From Candidatus Micrarchaeota archaeon (GTDB taxonomy: Archaea > Micrarchaeota > Micrarchaeia > Anstonellales > JAGGVH01), in assembly GCA_021158105.1 (NCBI GenBank), contig JAGGVH010000016.1, positions 1-49,023 on the forward strand: a stretch of 49,023 bases of DNA, written 5' to 3'. Of this stretch, positions 31,780-37,170 are shown piece after piece; within the stretch, counting starts at the first letter, position 1; every line of letters starts with the position of its first letter. The position numbers and the translations under genes are program-made. The notes beneath the pieces are model-generated. The model was not told the origin of the DNA. It saw nothing but the letters and a program-made list of their open reading frames with translations, and did no database searches.

Positions 31780-31863
31780 GATGATAATAAAAAGGTAAGG
31801 TATTTAAGCGTTATCACTTTTGCTGAACAATACTATTCGTTTTCATAATAAAGGATTAAATTA

Positions 31864-31932
31864 AAAGTTTAGTTTAAAGTTTTACGCAAAACTTCAAAGT
31901 TTAGTTTGAAATTATGCAATTATTTATAAAGG
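31864..31932 (+). repeat. Repeat A, copy 1 (69 bp; includes the TATA box of ATPase 1)
   Basis: 65/69 identical to 33225-33293; half-sites AAACTTCAAA/TTTGAAGTTT. Confidence 0.95.
31923..31930 (+). promoter_or_regulatory. Probable TATA box (TTTATAAA) for leaderless ATPase 1 transcript
   Basis: About 24 bp upstream of ATG 31954; no RBS. Confidence 0.6.
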
Positions 31933-31953
31933 TTTTGGAATTTAATATAGTAT

Positions 31954-33216
31954 ATGGACATTATTGAAATTGAAAACCAAAATCCTTGGTGGAATGATGA
32001 GGAATGGTTCAAAAAAGACCAAAAACTTATAACGGTTGAGAGGTCTGCTGTCAGTCTTGAATGGAAGCCATTTAAACTGGCAGAAGGAATTTATATTGTG
32101 TACGGCCCCAGACAAGTAGGAAAAACAACATGGGTTAAACAGGAAATTAAAAAACTTACTGATAAAAAAAAATATAATATATTATACCTCGCATGTGATG
32201 GAATCCTTTCAAATAAGGAATTTAAAAAAACACTCATAGAAATCTTAAAATATAAAAATTTTAAATATATATTTCTTGACGAGGTAACATTCATTGAAAA
32301 TTGGGAACAAATAATAAAATATCTTGCTGATTTAGGTAAATTTGAAGGGAAAACTGTGGTATTGACAGGATCATCATCACTCAATGTACTTAGAAAATCA
32401 GAGAGGCTGACTGGAAGACTAACAAAACAAAAACGATTTTATCCTTTAACATTTAGAGAATTTGTTAATGCAAAGATTAACACATCACCAACCAATGAAC
32501 AGTTATTTTATTTATTTAGGAGATATCTAATTCATGGAGGAATTTTAAAAGTTATTAACGAATATGAAAAAAATGGGTTTGTATCCTCTGACACTGTAAA
32601 TGATTATAGTGGAGCAATAGACGGAGAACTTTCAAAGATAAGGCATTCATCACGAATATTTAATTATATTCTCTCGCGTATCATAAAAACAATGACAAAC
32701 ACAATTTCATGGTCATCTATAGCAGGATCAGAAATTTCACAACCAACTGTATCTGATTATATTGAAATAGGAAAACAGCTTATGTTTATTGAATATATTG
32801 AAAATCTAAATTCATATGACAAGTCTTTCACAAAAAACAAAAAAATTTATTTTGTCGATCCTTTTATGTTTTGGGTTTCGCTCCATAGGATAAAAAGAAT
32901 TGGGGATGTTGGATTGGATAGTATTTTACCATATGAAAGCAAACTTGTGGAAAATGCTGTCTTTTCAAATCTTTTAATATATATTGATAAAAAAATTAAC
33001 CGTTCTATGTTTAATATACGTGATCACTTATTTTATATCAAAGATAGAACTGGGGAGATTGATTTCTACATAAATAAAAAGAAGATTGAAGTAAAATGGA
33101 CTAATAATTTTATTAAAAAACCAGACATTTTATACTTAACAAAAAGCAGTTTAAGCAGGAATGAAATACCTGTATATCAATTTTTATATGATATCGAAAA
33201 ATATGTAGGGTTATGA
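31954..33216 (+). CDS. AAA_14/DUF4143 ATPase (paralog 1)
   Basis: QNPWW, Walker A GPRQVGKTT, Walker B FLDEV, TGSS, LTGR, PLTFREF, GG, KKIYFVD, EN, EIDF..IEVK. Confidence 0.92.
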   Translation: MDIIEIENQNPWWNDEEWFKKDQKLITVERSAVSLEWKPFKLAEGIYIVYGPRQVGKTTWVKQEIKKLTDKKKYNILYLACDGILSNKEFKKTLIEILKYKNFKYIFLDEVTFIENWEQIIKYLADLGKFEGKTVVLTGSSSLNVLRKSERLTGRLTKQKRFYPLTFREFVNAKINTSPTNEQLFYLFRRYLIHGGILKVINEYEKNGFVSSDTVNDYSGAIDGELSKIRHSSRIFNYILSRIIKTMTNTISWSSIAGSEISQPTVSDYIEIGKQLMFIEYIENLNSYDKSFTKNKKIYFVDPFMFWVSLHRIKRIGDVGLDSILPYESKLVENAVFSNLLIYIDKKINRSMFNIRDHLFYIKDRTGEIDFYINKKKIEVKWTNNFIKKPDILYLTKSSLSRNEIPVYQFLYDIEKYVGL

Positions 33217-33224
33217 AAAATCTC

Positions 33225-33293
33225 AAAGTTTAGTTTGAAGTTTTACGCAAAACTTTAAAGTTAAGTTTGAAATTGTGCAATTATTTATAAAGG
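33225..33293 (+). repeat. Repeat A, copy 2 (8 bp after the ATPase 1 stop)
   Basis: Direct repeat of 31864-31932 with 4 mismatches. Confidence 0.95.
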
Positions 33294-33316
33294 CTCCGGT
33301 TCTGGACAGATAAAAA

Positions 33317-33374
33317 TATTTCTTTCTGTTCATAGAAAGAAAATTGGTAAATTCTTTCTATTGGTAGAAAGAAA
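33317..33374 (+). repeat. Repeat B, copy 1 (58 bp, abuts the ATPase 2 stop)
   Basis: Identical to 34671-34728; half-sites TTTCTTTCT/AGAAAGAAA. Confidence 0.97.
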
Positions 33375-34634
33375 TTATTTTAACAGCCATTTCCAAACGG
33401 GCAAAACTTGAATCTCTCTACCACCTATCTTGATCGTATCCTCAGTGTCATATGTAATAATTTCATTTGAATGTTTGAACATCTTTGATGCTTCTAAAAT
33501 TCCTTTAACTTCTCTGTCATAATTGTCTTGATTTAAAGTGTATGTAACCTGAATAGATTTGTTTGATGTTATAAAATCACATTCAAACCCATTCTTATAA
33601 TAATTAATCATCTTTTCTCTTCTGCGTAGTTCCAAATAAACTATATTCTCCAACATTCTTCCTATATCTTTATCAGGCACATAATAATTTATGAAGGCAT
33701 GGTCCATCACATAATTCTTTTTTGAATATGAAAGCTCTTTTTTCCCTTTATGTCTTGGGGTTATTAAATCTAAGAAATAAACCTCTTTTAGCATACCAAC
33801 ATAACTATGAATAACTGATGTGCTTGATTTATAATTTAAACTTTTTGCAAAATTATGAAACTTATTCATAGAAAATTCTTGAGAATAATTTTTTATTATA
33901 TACTTCATTAACAAATCCATTAAATCTCTATTCTTTATATTATACCTTTCAATTATATCCCTGTAGAATATCGTTTTAAAATAATCATCAATTATGCCCA
34001 ACCGGTTTTCTAAAACAATTTCTGGAAATCCACTCAACCTAACATAATCGTCAAACATTTTTTTTACCTTATGCTGCAATTTTCCATATTCCCAATTCTC
34101 TTTAAGTTTAACTCCTCTAAAAACTAAAAATTCTTTAAATGAAAGAGGAAACAACTCTATAGAATACGCCCTGCCTCTTAAAGATGTTGCAATCTCTCTA
34201 CTAAGTAGATTTGAGTTTGAGCCAGTGATATAAACAGTATATCTTTGCTCCTGTAATCTCCTTATGAATTTGTCCCATCCTCTAATGTTTTGTATTTCAT
34301 CAAAAAAAAGTATTGGTTTTTTGTCTGGATATAATTCATTATATCCTTCTAATATATAATTCAACTGTTCCTTCCTTATGTCTGAAATCCTTTCATTTTC
34401 AAAGTTTATGTATAAAAAATCTGTTATATCTTTACCAACTTTCATCTTTTCATTCATTATTTGATAGAGCAGATATGTTTTTCCAGCTCTTCTCGGACCA
34501 ACAACTGTTATAATTTTATTTATTTTCTTAAACTTGGGTATTTTAACATCTCTTTTGTAAAAATCAGGTATTCCAGTATCATGAAACTCCATTATGATTT
34601 CTTTTATGAACCTTTTTAACTCATAATTTTCCAT
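33375..34634 (-). CDS. AAA_14/DUF4143 ATPase (paralog 2)
   Basis: GPRRAGKT, YINFE, FFDEIQ, TGSNS, LRGR, PLSFKEF, GFPE, RDIIERY, LEN.V..EL, ECDF..IQVT; start MENYE at 34634. Confidence 0.93.
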   Translation of the reverse strand: MENYELKRFIKEIIMEFHDTGIPDFYKRDVKIPKFKKINKIITVVGPRRAGKTYLLYQIMNEKMKVGKDITDFLYINFENERISDIRKEQLNYILEGYNELYPDKKPILFFDEIQNIRGWDKFIRRLQEQRYTVYITGSNSNLLSREIATSLRGRAYSIELFPLSFKEFLVFRGVKLKENWEYGKLQHKVKKMFDDYVRLSGFPEIVLENRLGIIDDYFKTIFYRDIIERYNIKNRDLMDLLMKYIIKNYSQEFSMNKFHNFAKSLNYKSSTSVIHSYVGMLKEVYFLDLITPRHKGKKELSYSKKNYVMDHAFINYYVPDKDIGRMLENIVYLELRRREKMINYYKNGFECDFITSNKSIQVTYTLNQDNYDREVKGILEASKMFKHSNEIITYDTEDTIKIGGREIQVLPVWKWLLK

Positions 34635-34670
34635 ACTATTATCTACTAAATAAACATTTTTAAACCTTTC

Positions 34671-34728
34671 TATTTCTTTCTGTTCATAGAAAGAAAATTG
34701 GTAAATTCTTTCTATTGGTAGAAAGAAA
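34671..34728 (+). repeat. Repeat B, copy 2 (upstream of the ATPase 2 promoter)
   Basis: 58/58 identical to 33317-33374. Confidence 0.97.
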
Positions 34729-34730
34729 GT

Positions 34731-34782
34731 TGTTTTCTGTAAAAAACAAAAATGTATGTTTTTGTTCTTTTGAAAAAACAAT
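34731..34782 (+). repeat. Repeat C, copy 1 (52 bp, abuts the ATPase 3 stop)
   Basis: 51/52 identical to 36050-36101; half-sites TTTTTGTTTT/AAAACAAAAA. Confidence 0.96.
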
Positions 34783-36020
34783 TATAGGATTGAATAAAAT
34801 ATATAAAACGGAAGTTTATACACCCCATCTTTTTCAGAAATATCCAATCCTTTATAAACAATTATTTTCTTGAACTTAGTTTTTATGTTATTAAACTGCT
34901 GGAACCCTTTTTTCTTTGAACCTATTTCAATTAGATAATCTTTCCAAACAAAATCAATATTATCTAAAAAATAAACATTTGTAAAATTAGATGCAAATAT
35001 ATCTTCAGTCATATTCCCAACAGTTTCTGACTCTGGGATCAACATCATATCAGCATACTCCTTTCTTATAGATGGGACAATAAAATAATATTTCCATTCC
35101 TTTCTTGCAGAAGATTTACCCATTTTGTAAGGCAATACCCTTTTTATGATTTCACCTCTCTCAAGAAGATTAAGCATACTACCCACCATACTCTTTGAAA
35201 CTCCAAGATCATTAGACAATACTGTATAATTAATCTTATTAGAAGCTGATAATAAGAGAATCATCCTTTCAAATTTATTCAGAGTGTATGTTTCCAGATT
35301 TCTTGACTTTGCAATGTCTGAATATATTACTTTTTCAACAAGGTCTTTTAATGTTTTAGGAGAATTATCAAACAGGTATGGTAGATTATTATTTATATAA
35401 TCATCAACAATATTTAATAAATTTGACACTTTATCATGAATATAGATATCATATCTCATTGCACTTCTCAATAAATCTTCACCTGGATTAAACCTTTCAA
35501 GTTTTACACCAGTCCTAATAAATATATATTCTCTAAATAACAAGGGGGGCAGGTGAACATAATTTGCACGTCTTGCAAGTTTTTGTTTGGATTCCTTAAT
35601 ATTTAAAGATGATGAACCAGTAATATAAAATTTCATTTTAGTATATTTATCATATGCAACTTTTATTTCATCCCACCAGTTAGGATAAGCATTGATTTCA
35701 TCTATAAACACTATTGCATCATCACCAAATAGATATTGAACCGCTTTTAAAACACTAAGTAAAGGTAACTTAACAGTGGATATCTCCTCCCCATGAATAT
35801 AAACTCGTTTACTTTCGTCAGATTCATTATATTTTTGGAACATGATAGTTGTTTTACCACTGCCACGTATACCATACATAATATTTAAACGTTTATTAAA
35901 CATATCATAAAAAAATCTTTTTTTATATTCAACATAATCTTTAGACGTCTTTTCATATCCAATCTTAGAATATTTAACAAATTCAACTGCATCAATAGAA
36001 TTTACTCCAAAATTATTCAT
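34782..36020 (-). CDS. AAA_14/DUF4143 ATPase (paralog 3)
   Basis: GIRGSGKTT, FIDEI, TGSSS, LARR, PLLFREY, wHTH LSNDLGVSKSMV, KYYF, IDF..IEIG; start MNNFG at 36020. Confidence 0.92.
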   Translation of the reverse strand: MNNFGVNSIDAVEFVKYSKIGYEKTSKDYVEYKKRFFYDMFNKRLNIMYGIRGSGKTTIMFQKYNESDESKRVYIHGEEISTVKLPLLSVLKAVQYLFGDDAIVFIDEINAYPNWWDEIKVAYDKYTKMKFYITGSSSLNIKESKQKLARRANYVHLPPLLFREYIFIRTGVKLERFNPGEDLLRSAMRYDIYIHDKVSNLLNIVDDYINNNLPYLFDNSPKTLKDLVEKVIYSDIAKSRNLETYTLNKFERMILLLSASNKINYTVLSNDLGVSKSMVGSMLNLLERGEIIKRVLPYKMGKSSARKEWKYYFIVPSIRKEYADMMLIPESETVGNMTEDIFASNFTNVYFLDNIDFVWKDYLIEIGSKKKGFQQFNNIKTKFKKIIVYKGLDISEKDGVYKLPFYIFYSIL

Positions 36021-36049
36021 GTTTATTATATATACATATATATTTATAA

Positions 36050-36101
36050 TGTTTTCTGTAAAAAACAAAAATGTATGATTTTGTTCTTTTGAAAAAACAA
36101 T
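36050..36101 (+). repeat. Repeat C, copy 2 (adjoins the ATPase 3 TATA box)
   Basis: Direct repeat of 34731-34782 with 1 mismatch. Confidence 0.96.
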
Positions 36102-36428
36102 GCTTTTAGATATCACCAATCTTGCTTGAAAAGAATTCTACTATTTGTCCACTATAACCATTATAATAAGATCCTTCCATAATAGGATTATACATTTTTT
36201 AGTTAAAAATTGTGATTAAACATTTGATGTTTAGGTTAAATGTTAACTGTTAAGGATAAGAGTTAGAGTGGTTAACTGATAGTTTTTATAAAACATTTTC
36301 AACAGTCAACCCCCATAAAACCCATAATAACCTTTTTAAAACTATATGATATAATATACTTGAATATTTAAATGAATGTTTGAAAATAAAAAGTAAAAAG
36401 TTTGATGTTTGAACGGAGGTGTCAGAAG

Positions 36429-36806
36429 ATGAAGATAAACATGTTGTTTGCAATGATGTTCATTGCATTGTTAATGATGAATGTGTGGAGTGATCTTGGT
36501 GATGGTGCCTTGGTTGATGATGATGATGGTGGTGATGGTGATGATATTACATTTGGTAGTCTTAGAAATGTGCTTTGTGAAGTTAAAAAGGGAATTGAAG
36601 AATTATTAGGACCGATCGCATTCCTGCTTGTTGTAATGGCAGCAGTGATTTATGCTGGTGGACAACTCGGTGATGCACAACTCAGGGCAAAGGCGCAGGG
36701 TTGGGCAGTCGGTGCACTCGTTGGTGCTATCATAGCGTTTGTTTTATATGCAGTAGGACCAACTATTATAACAAAGATGTTTGGCGCTACTGATTGTCCT
36801 CCATAA
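36429..36806 (+). CDS. TrbC/VirB2-like pilin, paralog 1
   Basis: Signal peptide, acidic linker, TM-(GGQLGDAQLRAKAQGW)-TM hairpin; GGAGGTG RBS. Confidence 0.65.
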   Translation: MKINMLFAMMFIALLMMNVWSDLGDGALVDDDDGGDGDDITFGSLRNVLCEVKKGIEELLGPIAFLLVVMAAVIYAGGQLGDAQLRAKAQGWAVGALVGAIIAFVLYAVGPTIITKMFGATDCPP

Positions 36807-36816
36807 GGTGAACATC

Positions 36817-37170
36817 ATGAAACCTCTTTTTTCTTTTATTTTGTTTTCAATGCTTCTTACCGGTTTTATCTTTGCATATGAAGATGAAGACAGTGGCATG
36901 ACCAAACTCACAGACGTGTTATGTAAAGTTGAAGCTCAACTTATTACTCTTCTCGGACCGATCGCATTCCTATTAGTTGTCATGGCGGCAGTCGTATACG
37001 GTGGAAGCCAGTTAGGTGATGCACAACTCAGGGCAAAGGGCCAAGGTTGGGCAGTCATGGCAATTGTCGGTGCAGTCATAGCATTCGTTATAATGATGTT
37101 CGGCCCTTGGCTGGTTGAAACCATGTTCGGCGGAAAATGTGAAGGGGGAGAATGGGTAGTAACTGAATAA
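36817..37170 (+). CDS. TrbC/VirB2-like pilin, paralog 2
   Basis: Shares LLGPIAFLLVVMAAV.Y.G.QLGDAQLRAK.QGWAV with paralog 1; AGGTGA RBS. Confidence 0.65.
   Translation: MKPLFSFILFSMLLTGFIFAYEDEDSGMTKLTDVLCKVEAQLITLLGPIAFLLVVMAAVVYGGSQLGDAQLRAKGQGWAVMAIVGAVIAFVIMMFGPWLVETMFGGKCEGGEWVVTE

Follow-up and report, generated by a model that had tools for sequence, protein, structure and literature searches.

The stretch of DNA analysed here, a window of 49,023 nucleotides from a Candidatus Micrarchaeota archaeon, carries three repeats (A, B and C) with half-site (arm) sequences that are mutually unrelated and a geometry that is held in common, and the question raised by this locus is what such arrays are for. 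The layout of 10-6-10-6-10-6-10 claimed for all three in a preliminary description was recovered, with a shift of 0 being the best register within ±3 bases for 6/6 arrays, as was the spacing of 32 bp between palindromes in A, B and C. Opposed half-sites agreed at 8-9 of 10 bases for the inner pair (h2/h3) and at 7-10 of 10 for the outer pair (h1/h4), and since all four half-sites alternate in orientation, the whole 58 bp forms a palindrome. A template score was calculated as the palindromy of both pairs plus the direct similarity of like half-sites (maximum 40), giving 29 and 30 for A1 and A2, 36 and 35 for B1 and B2, and 28 and 27 for C1 and C2, compared with a mean of 10.9 (sd 3.0) for the 49-kb window as a whole, in which the 11 positions scoring at least 28 were confined to five clusters (A1, A2, B1, B2 and C1). 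A fixed-template scan, as earlier proposed, was run on the genome (0.96 Mb) and gave 27 positions at or above 28, against 0 in three dinucleotide-model shuffles (shuffle maximum 27). High scorers were found to cluster at genes of a single family: of 12 clusters scoring at least 29, 11 touched a PF13635 gene and the twelfth (C40:6267) precedes a gene start truncated by the contig end. At least 14 different arrays were counted in this one genome.

A point not stressed in the preliminary description is that each of A, B and C occurs in two copies, which form a direct repeat on either side of a single gene. Its sequences were located at the positions given, but the span began at B1 and so omitted A1 (from 31857), A2 (from 33218) and C2 (from 36046). 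Array A1 (31857..31914) lies 5' of gene 1 (31954..33216, plus strand, 420 aa), whose TATA-box-like TTTATAAA (31923..31930, plus strand) is inside the A repeat, 24 bp 5' of the ATG, and array A2 (33218..33275) begins 2 bp past the gene 1 stop codon. The A1 copy of the direct repeat spans 31864-31932, and the A2-side copy (33225-33293) is 94% identical to it and holds a second TATA-like box. Gene 2 (33375..34637, minus strand, 419-420 aa) has array B1 (33318..33375) at its 3' end, the final base of which overlaps the stop codon, and the promoter-proximal array B2 (34672..34729), identical to B1 at 58/58 positions over the repeat, next to a TATA-box-like TTTAAAAA read on the minus strand (34657..34664). 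Gene 3 (34782..36020, minus strand, 412 aa) is likewise bracketed by C1 (34727..34784), which overlaps its stop codon and, by 3 bp, array B2, and by the promoter-proximal C2 (36046..36103), with a TATA-box-like TTATAAATAT, again a minus-strand reading, at 36040..36049; the C1/C2 repeat is 52 bp long with 1 mismatch. The arrays were placed from the sequence and the template score, and the three boxes are putative promoter elements. In each cassette, one array copy abuts an archaeal TATA box and a second copy, 94-100% identical, lies at the stop codon. An assembly artefact was rejected as the source of these repeats, which are internal to the contig, show 0-4 differences between copies and are seen again in other assemblies.

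The bracketed genes were assigned using Pfam, PADLOC and alignment. An N-terminal AAA_14 P-loop domain was matched at 98.9, 132.5 and 90.7 bits in genes 1-3 (Pfam cut-off 27) and a C-terminal DUF4143 domain, of the PD-(D/E)xK clan, at 39.5, 45.6 and 34.1 bits (Pfam cut-off 28.1). Walker A GPRxxGKT and DE(I/V) motifs align in the three proteins, and PADLOC PDC-S01 models match all of them, gene 2 at full length (E 4.5e-104). On their sequences, the three adjacent genes are members of family COG1373, the PADLOC candidate PDC-S01 (AAA_14+DUF4143). The catalytic motif varies in the alignment, being intact in gene 1 (EIDF...IEVKW), nuclease-like in gene 2 (ECDF...IQVT) and IDF...IEIGSKKK in gene 3. 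Within the gene 2 clade Q is kept in 90%, with Q and T/C replacing the catalytic E and K, and as this clade lacks the canonical E-x-K, a nuclease-based step cannot be general. The consulted portion of a 2026 survey (PMC12988326) treats PDC-S01 as a fusion of an ATPase with a PD-(D/E)xK domain and ranks it as the fourth most common prokaryotic defence candidate; it counts about 10,000 copies in archaea and 29,000 in bacteria, and reports enrichment in Archaea and transfer between domains. According to the available part of another report, the one PDC-S01 representative tested in E. coli fell outside the 4/8 candidates reported as protective against T7, T5 or T4 (bioRxiv 10.1101/2024.09.26.614923). 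The likeness of genes 1-3 to PDC-S01 consists of the Pfam pair and the model matches, and an anti-phage role is a candidate function only. In the consulted parts of the literature on DUF4143, COG1373 and PDC-S01, no mention was found of cognate arrays, promoter operators or flanking repeats.

A structural model of the gene 2 protein (pLDDT 92.6) has a winged helix-turn-helix (wHTH) spanning roughly residues 237-312, C-terminal to the AAA+ module and its lid. The top structural matches were 2fna, an AAA+ ATPase from an archaeon, and 2qby, an Orc1/Cdc6-origin DNA complex, with 1fnn and ORC subunits also high; the Foldseek probability was 1.0 to 2qby and 1fnn, at TM-scores of only 0.29-0.33. As modelled, the protein resembles an Orc1/Cdc6-like AAA+ module joined to a winged helix and a nuclease-like domain. 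No Cdc6 family was present among the Pfam matches of the three proteins, phmmer gave no PDB sequence match and no NCBIfam family was matched. Haloarchaea have initiator-specific origins, in origin-initiator pairs, and a similar pairing is seen here, each protein having inverted repeats of its own beside its gene. Each cassette could be pictured as an integrated mini-replicon, in which an Orc1/Cdc6-like initiator would act on arrays serving as origin repeats and the two origin copies would permit replicative release; the solved folds closest to the model include Orc1/Cdc6 on origin DNA, and the repeated ends look like those of a circle copied slightly beyond unit length. However, the family is without Cdc6 sequence membership and has an extra C-terminal nuclease-like domain, the arrays lie exactly at promoters and stop codons, and neither an AT-rich unwinding element between them nor a helicase is present. 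The family also reaches dozens of copies per genome, and twenty-five origins per ~1 Mb would be implausible; its relatives are rare in a viral contig collection (just 8 loci), and no circular form was seen in the contigs compared. A replicon is therefore considered very improbable.

The arrays occupy a consistent position relative to the predicted promoters, stopping 4-64 bp 5' of the ATG and, in most cassettes, at or within the TATA-like box. The 16-bp periodicity that the preliminary description expected at other loci of the family was borne out as a period of 32-34 bp. Upstream self-similarity in this genome had its best period at 32-33 bp, at 17/24 or more, in 12/23 paralogues, a level reached at any period by 5% of 300 random 150-mers used as a control. 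A period of 32-34 was also found in 10/26 genes, sampled from 26 further genomes within the order, and in 25/71 distant bacterial and archaeal relatives, the latter selected by protein alone. Oligomeric regulators are known to use regularly spaced operator arrays, such as Lrp-type sites about three helical turns apart, and the tandem palindromes here, 32-33 bp apart and directly 5' of the core promoter, are comparable. Unlike the Lrp type, the putative reader is an ATPase with a nuclease-like domain and not a small regulator, each paralogue has a private site, and a second copy of the array lies at the gene's 3' end.

The half-sites were found to vary together with the adjacent protein. A gene 1 orthologue from another taxonomic family has the same half-sites and central spacer, while its outer spacers differ, and identity summed over 9 loci was 279/360 for half-sites versus 94/162 for spacers. 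When metagenomes were searched by DNA alone with three B half-sites, 19 loci were recovered, 7 of which carry a gene 2 orthologue (52-61% aa) starting about 30 bp downstream of the site; no paralogue in the genome itself exceeds 39% identity to gene 2. The H2-H3 segment of the wHTH was 64% identical in six B-site orthologues (57% overall) and 21% identical in seven paralogues with other sites (33% overall), and the recognition helix YKSSTSV(I/V)H was retained in B-type orthologues only. In these comparisons half-site sequence follows the adjacent protein, and the recognition helix is conserved only among orthologues sharing a site. The earlier proposal that one protein architecture goes with different site sequences is upheld to this extent, as AAA_14+DUF4143 is encoded by all three genes and the half-sites track the neighbouring protein type across genomes; its likening of the arrays to Xer/dif-type core sites is not.

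If the arrays were core sites of a tyrosine recombinase of XerA type, the cassettes would be moved by the host Xer, and the inverted arms around a 6-bp spacer, in modules without a recombinase of their own, have prompted this comparison. Family homologues are also frequent on plasmids of Acinetobacter, the source of 167 of the 214 plasmid records with a homologue, and Xer-exploiting elements and the pdif modules of such plasmids are analogues. The Xer/dif sites of one recombinase, however, have a common arm consensus, whereas the arms of A, B and C are unrelated and co-vary with the adjacent ATPase. The genome holds a single tyrosine recombinase gene (PF00589), on another contig and far from the cassettes, to set against its 14 or more arrays, the arms are 10 bp long and in tandem pairs instead of a single 11-6-11 site, and the one Acinetobacter plasmid homologue inspected (n=1) had no flanking direct or inverted repeat. 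Movement by Xer is accordingly rated as highly unlikely. A related comparison is with integron cassettes, in which a promoterless ORF has attC at its 3' end alone and lies next to an IntI integrase and attI. In common with attC and Xer modules, the arrays are cassette-specific, imperfect palindromes of ~58 bp, conserved in geometry but not in sequence, in abutting single-gene cassettes; they differ from attC in that the two ends carry the same array, every gene has a TATA-like box of its own and there is no integron integrase, and from both in that arm sequence co-varies with the encoded protein and the lone Xer-type gene lies elsewhere.

The palindromic character of the whole 58 bp would equally suit arrays that work as folded single strands, either as hairpins or cruciforms in the manner of integron attC and IS200/IS605 ends or as RNA terminators, and single-strand folding is good, with z-scores of -3.7, -6.1 and -2.7 relative to shuffles. 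In orthologous arrays, however, it is the arm sequence itself and not merely the pairing that is kept, the B arms showing no compensatory changes, and the promoter copies, being upstream of the TATA box, fall outside the transcript. No Rfam family was matched, and a search confined to PF00589, which returned 1 match, gave neither an integron integrase nor a TnpA-like gene. Action as a folded strand is regarded as extremely improbable.

The second array copy, at the stop codon, is part of a wider pattern in the genome. Flanking repeats were detected at 13/25 family loci versus 3/339 other ORFs, and those three all encode PF01637/AAA_14 + wHTH ATPases without a nuclease domain. The repeats of 52-69 bp in the window surround single ATPase genes and enclose no further ORF belonging to a known mobility family. 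Their boundaries vary, starting at -15 to +22 from the stop and ending at scattered positions around the TATA box, and at A2 a well-formed outer half-site lies beyond the exact repeat. Precise cutting at array edges was considered and rejected, the boundaries being at no fixed offset from the half-sites. Elsewhere, a downstream copy was found for 5/26 genes of the order and for 0/13 genes in five further loci; it is not general in the family and may be neither required nor typical.

Both arrays could be regulatory, with an ATPase oligomer bridging the promoter and 3' arrays so as to loop or insulate the gene and block read-in and read-out, the copies being matched by gene conversion under selection and no mobility being involved beyond gene gain and loss. 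The outer half-site of A2 bears on this directly, because its place outside the repeat means that the 3' array could be kept for function (looping, roadblock) and need not be a scar. Boundaries unfixed relative to the half-sites, mismatches that gather at the repeat edges, the pattern expected of conversion tracts, and the same arrangement around the related ATPases lacking a nuclease domain are all favourable to it. The upstream array nevertheless stands alone in most family members elsewhere, spacers and extra flanking bases, a copy of the TATA box included, are duplicated with the half-sites, congeners lack the cassettes and host-derived repeats bracket other family genes. A purely regulatory bridge, which is compatible with cognate operators on mobile cassettes and not exclusive of them, is judged to be rather unlikely.

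Support for cassette-like behaviour of the units was found in their distribution. Copy number of the family in the order ranges from 0 to 36 per ~1-Mb genome, with 25 copies here and 2-3 in two congeners, and since paralogues within the genome are just 25-42% identical, they are not recent local duplicates. In both congeners (G001 and G002) the flanking genes are adjacent, with neither cassette nor array between them, and the locus of a cassette in G011 is likewise empty in G019, without an array; as these empty sites are from other species (~70% nucleotide identity), exact junctions cannot be drawn. A solitary B-like array was found in a genome without a B-type gene. Insertion into a pre-existing solitary array was rejected for the loci compared, as the empty sites (G001/G002; G019) contain no array, even though one stands alone in another genome. 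The repeat around one cassette is a 21-bp copy of a tRNA 3' end, and 26-90-bp repeats flank 14/65 distant relatives, exceeding the highest value among 400 mismatched-pair controls; several of the latter repeats are duplicated host gene ends. Single-gene units of 1.37-1.55 kb occur between such duplicated gene ends or a tRNA end in unrelated genomes. A search of metagenome contigs with the exact 32-base left flank gave 0 matches.

The available part of a study of restriction-modification units with long target duplication describes direct repeats of >30 bp and no transposase or integrase (Furuta et al. 2010, PMC2853133). The cassettes resemble these units in having direct repeats of this class (52-69 bp here) with no mobility gene inside, and the 26-90-bp repeats of duplicated host gene ends at distant relatives fit the description. 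The window repeat differs in being the gene's own putative operator, which travels with it across genomes and is not target DNA; consistent with this, the repeat was absent as a single-copy sequence from the empty sites in G001, G002 and (for the G011 cassette) G019, which is a weak, between-species comparison.

A protein acting on its own arrays, with its nuclease-like domain or with host enzymes, might also excise, circularise or insert the unit, making each cassette a self-mobilising single-gene element. In the 13 listed cassettes the array is always inside the repeats and no part of the gene ever is, and the absence of an integrase or transposase from cassettes in a genome with one tyrosine recombinase, the single-gene units in unrelated genomes, the solitary array and the patchy copy number are all in keeping with such an element. 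Variable boundaries, replacement of the catalytic E and K in the gene 2 clade and the three flanked genes without any nuclease domain argue against it, and host recombination between 50-70-bp repeats could suffice without the protein. Seven DNA runs containing the organism were identified (4 studies, none recorded as RNA), four of which were compared, and no contig bridging the repeat, the empty site or a circle junction was present in the low-depth Logan contigs of 200-1000 bp from these four, which also leaves the locus without a joint across the repeat. Self-mobilisation is regarded as clearly unlikely. Two joints present in Logan contigs were not trusted, the shorter side being just 23-24 letters, and in some runs depth was lower over the cassettes than over the flanks, figures which cannot be ranked.

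The best reading, at a probability of roughly 60%, is that the arrays are cognate operators of autoregulated, cassette-like, horizontally moving COG1373/PDC-S01 genes. A, B and C would be the private recognition arrays of three adjacent proteins, in each of which an AAA+ ATPase is joined to a winged helix and a PD-(D/E)xK-like domain, and the winged helices of a pair of dimers, or of some larger oligomer, would read the four alternating half-sites, 16 bp apart; at 32 bp, or about three helical turns, the palindromes would present the same face of the DNA. The copy abutting the TATA box would be the operator, so that each encoded protein may bind its own array and each gene control itself without cross-talk with its ~25 paralogues. 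The second copy, at the stop codon, would close a unit of ~1.3 kb (array-promoter-gene-array) that may act as an accessory, horizontally moving cassette, and we infer that this copy arose from cassette movement or serves it, beyond regulation alone. The matched flanking sites identify the genes as self-contained and probably mobile units. It is tentatively suggested, as a doubtful extension, that COG1373/PDC-S01 genes are minimal selfish elements instead of defence genes, in which the ATPase-wHTH(-nuclease) protein on its private 58-bp end arrays throttles the promoter and also directs how the 1.3-kb unit is excised, copied or inserted; with sites and recognition helices diversified, cassettes in the same cell would then not interfere, with the result that no two cassettes in a genome are alike.

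With cognate operators as the working assignment, each protein is given a predicted, specific DNA partner that is open to gel shift or footprinting, and a family-wide rule of two sites 32-34 bp apart at the promoter can be stated. The flanking data suggest that many copies are single-gene cassettes with long bracketing repeats, and if this is true, the enrichment of the family in variable islands reads differently. The matched sets of sites and recognition helices would form a natural series on the divergence of winged-helix specificity and a possible source of orthogonal regulator-operator pairs. As to how the protein would sit on the array, adjacent half-sites at 16 bp fall on opposite helix faces, an arrangement that is unusual for a simple HTH dimer and counts against this assignment.

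Three adjacent genes of one family lie within positions 31850-36110 of the window, namely gene 1 (31954-33216, forward strand), gene 2 (33375-34637, reverse strand) and gene 3 (34782-36020, reverse strand), all of which encode AAA_14 + DUF4143 ATPases whose scores for both domains exceed the Pfam cut-offs. The family is COG1373, carried as the defence candidate PDC-S01 in PADLOC. A repeat search found arrays A, B and C to be present twice each, as a direct repeat on both sides of one gene: A at 31864-31932 and 33225-33293 (94% identical) around gene 1, B at 33317-33381 and 34671-34735 (core identical at 58/58 positions) around gene 2, and C at 34731-34782 and 36050-36101 (98% identical) around gene 3, with start-to-start spacings of 1361, 1354 and 1319 bp, respectively. 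As each array is paired around a single gene, the region singled out in the preliminary description spans B1, gene 2, B2 and C1, and misses A1, A2 and C2.

The arrays had been parsed in that description as four 10-bp half-sites (h1-h4) separated by 6-bp spacers. A 10-6-10-6-10-6-10 template was scored for the palindromy of both pairs plus the direct similarity of like half-sites (maximum 40); the six array copies scored 27-36, and in all six the register originally proposed was the best within ±3 bases. Across the window the template score had a mean of 10.9 (sd 3.0), with positions of at least 28 seen only within A1, A2, B1, B2 and C1. The whole 0.96-Mb genome contained 27 such positions and three dinucleotide-model shuffles none (maximum 27). 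The 32-bp distance between the two palindromes was likewise recovered in each of A, B and C and, since the inner pair h2/h3 is palindromic too, the 58 bp form a palindrome as a whole. The four-half-site geometry is real and far beyond chance.

Absence of the periodicity from other family loci had been named beforehand as evidence against this reading, and the periodicity was found in paralogues of the same genome, in the order and among distant relatives. The genome holds at least 25 PF13635 (DUF4143) matches, plus gene 1; 11 of its 12 best template clusters touch a PF13635 gene, and the twelfth is located just upstream of a gene start lost at a contig end. The best upstream self-similarity had a period of 32-33 bp and at least 17/24 matches in 12 of the 23 paralogues with usable upstream sequence, a level of matching reached by 5% of 300 random 150-mers, at scattered periods. 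At the same threshold, a period of 32-34 bp was seen in 10 of 26 family genes sampled across 26 further genomes of the order, and a period of 32-34 bp in 25/71 relatives from very diverse Bacteria and Archaea that had been selected solely by likeness of the protein (35-46% identity). The two units are, in some subfamilies, direct repeats that lack obvious palindromes within them. Extension of the array observation to the whole family was thus confirmed.

In the upstream regions inspected, the array stops at, or immediately before, an archaeal TATA-like box, which itself lies approximately 22-30 bp before the ATG, a distance suggesting short or no leaders. Because the array abuts this box, it sits where an operator adjoining the core promoter would, and the arrays are likely to regulate the adjacent promoter. 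Two complete tandem arrays (four palindromes) occur upstream of some family genes (loci L011, L012 and L016 of genomes G011 and G019, and positions 6189-6324 of contig C40 of the present genome), with 25-50 bp between the arrays and a TATA-like box after each.

Several comparative results point to the adjacent protein as the probable reader of the array. The arrays are wholly different among paralogues, and the neighbouring gene is the only thing that changes with the array. The arrays of a gene 1 orthologue from a different taxonomic family (69% nucleotide identity) share the half-sites and the central spacer but differ in the outer spacers and, summed over nine loci whose arrays are A-, B- or C-like, identity to the window copy was 279/360 for half-sites and 94/162 for spacers. 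A search of metagenome contigs with three B half-sites alone returned 19 loci, seven of which carried a gene 2 orthologue (52-61% amino acid identity) about 30 bp after the site, against an identity of at most 39% between gene 2 and the paralogues of its own genome; the other 12 had no gene 2 orthologue within the stretch examined, two of them with only distant family members. The gene 2 protein was modelled with high confidence (pLDDT 92.6): besides an AAA+ core and a lid, it has a winged helix (about residues 237-312) and a PD-(D/E)xK-like domain. Its best structural matches were the archaeal AAA+ ATPase 2fna and Orc1/Cdc6 on origin DNA, the latter alike in architecture, although the gene 2 protein is not a member of that group by sequence. 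Identity within the winged-helix H2-H3 segment was 64% among six B-site orthologues and 21% among seven other-site paralogues (57% and 33%, respectively, over the whole protein), and the helix YKSSTSV(I/V)H was specific to the B group. The earlier proposal that one protein architecture reads many orthogonal sites is therefore well supported by comparative evidence, namely the co-variation of half-sites with protein and the putative recognition helix. It was also conceivable that the arrays act as folded single strands, as they fold well in that form; the arm sequences themselves, however, are conserved without compensatory changes, which favours protein recognition of duplex DNA. At one locus (L004, contig C10 of genome G003), an array at 1463-1520 upstream of a gene 2 orthologue has B-like outer and C-like inner half-sites, and is possibly a hybrid operator; the same gene has a pure B-like array after its stop codon.

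For the second copy at the stop codon, the 150-450 bp preceding each family gene were compared with the 160-290 bp or so that follow it. A direct repeat scoring at least 18 was obtained for 13 of 25 testable family rows; in ten it consisted of the operator array (46-69 bp, 0-4 mismatches) and in one more of a single 36-bp palindrome, and the downstream repeats of these eleven start between -15 and +22 bp relative to the stop codon's end. When 339 other ORFs of the genome (250-600 amino acids) were put through this comparison, three were positive. All three encode PF01637/AAA_14 ATPases that have an MCM-type winged helix at the C terminus but lack a nuclease domain, so the rate for unrelated genes was 0/336. 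These shorter ATPases (L080-L082; contigs C42:5425-6441, C37:3541-4590 and C20:24667-25752) have palindrome-bearing direct repeats of 37-67 bp, and in one of them the palindrome arms stand on either side of the TATA-like box. Elsewhere, a 3' copy accompanied 5/26 family genes of the same-order sample and none of 13 genes at five additional loci in three other genomes; it is no general feature of the family. Relative to the half-sites and the TATA box, the repeats do not begin and end at constant positions, an argument against exact cleavage at the edges of the array. A good outer half-site of A2 lies beyond the exact repeat, a hint that the 3' array may have been selected for a function.

The nuclease motif is canonical in gene 1, but reads Q-x-T/C in the clade of gene 2 and E-x-G in the group of gene 3, and the domain is absent from the three flanked relatives, so that the nuclease is not the common cause of the repeats.

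The cassettes are accessory. Family copies number from 0 to 36 per genome among 61 genomes of the order, with 25 here and 2-3 in two congeners, and within-genome paralogues are only 25-42% identical, so that the expansion is not a recent local duplication. In both congeners the genes flanking the three cassettes are direct neighbours, and the short intergenic region at the empty site contained no A, B or C half-sites; these empty sites belong to other species, with a nucleotide identity of about 70%, for which reason exact junctions cannot be drawn. Likewise, the spot of an A-type cassette in genome G011 is occupied in its congener G019 by an unrelated gene with no array. A solitary B-like array (L013, 1645-1705; contig C5 of genome G036), 46/58 identical to that of the window, lies intergenically between unrelated genes; the genome concerned is 88% complete, and its closest relative of gene 2 has 37% identity. 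In the present genome, one family gene (L047, contig C22:29707-31098) is bracketed by a 21-bp direct repeat corresponding to the 3' end of a tRNA gene with an intron; only these two copies of the 21-bp sequence exist in the genome, and no integrase is nearby. In a broad sample, flank repeats of 26-90 bp were found at 14/65 loci, above the maximum of 400 mismatched-pair controls; several were a duplicated host-gene end with one copy left intact, and the repeat-to-repeat distance of 1.43-1.55 kb corresponds to one gene. Contigs of public runs with the locus were all short and of low depth, and none bridged a repeat.

Two tandem small genes at 36402-37170 of the window encode hydrophobic proteins; a 138-bp repeat common to the two (36609-36746 and 36955-37092) is 78% identical, and both congeners likewise have two copies directly beside the empty site. 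The L047 family gene has an upstream array of 33-bp period, and in G003 a different neighbour stands beside the tRNA in question. At L053 (contig C39:600-806 of the present genome), a tRNA gene is apparently split by an intron of about 130 nt that contains a 32-bp-period tandem palindrome (template score 30/40), with arms unrelated to the array of the neighbouring cassette; that family cassette, which has its own flanking repeat, starts about 20 bp past the tRNA 3' end.

Most likely, each protein binds its own array via its winged helices, presumably as two dimers or a higher oligomer on palindromes three helical turns apart, and the protein, bound to the copy next to the promoter, would control transcription of its own gene. 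Separate specificities would keep the many paralogues from cross-regulation, and the second copy would turn the gene into a closed unit. The near identity of the two copies, which covers the spacers and, in A, the TATA box, together with the absence of the unit from congeners and the solitary array elsewhere, fits a cassette that comes and goes as an array-gene-array unit. Such a unit would most obviously be lost by recombination between its two array copies, possibly also giving a circular form. The encoded protein may take part in movement, or the 3' array may serve looping or insulation; that the cassette is a new type of single-gene mobile element has a minority chance.

The preliminary description had also likened the arms to Xer/dif-type sites. 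This reading was not supported, and both it and an integron analogy fail on defining features: the arms have no common consensus, and the single tyrosine recombinase of the genome is on another contig. The long host-derived repeats of the distant relatives resemble what the available part of PMC2853133 calls, in restriction-modification units, 'insertion with long target duplication'; the window repeats are unlike these in that they constitute the operator of the gene itself and do not occur at the empty sites. As for the family, the portions available of a 2012 survey give its function as unknown (PMC3424549), and those of a 2026 survey describe PDC-S01 only as an abundant ATPase-nuclease defence candidate (PMC12988326). 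In a partial text, one PDC-S01 representative tested in E. coli was not among the 4/8 candidates reported as protective (bioRxiv 10.1101/2024.09.26.614923). No mention of DNA arrays or flanking repeats was found in the excerpts of the DUF4143, COG1373 and PDC-S01 literature. The arrays and cassettes appear akin to known operator-regulator pairs and repeat-flanked defence-type gene units, of which they would be a new variant. In a plasmid collection, 167 of the 214 records with a gene 2 homologue were from Acinetobacter, and the single homologue inspected was without a flanking repeat. In the present genome, many family genes are found at a contig end or run across one (C6, C30, C36, C3, C25, C39, C23, C2 and C40); one seems to be divided between the ends of C36 and C6, both pieces having the same array. 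The pattern suggests that the assembly breaks at variable or repeated cassettes.
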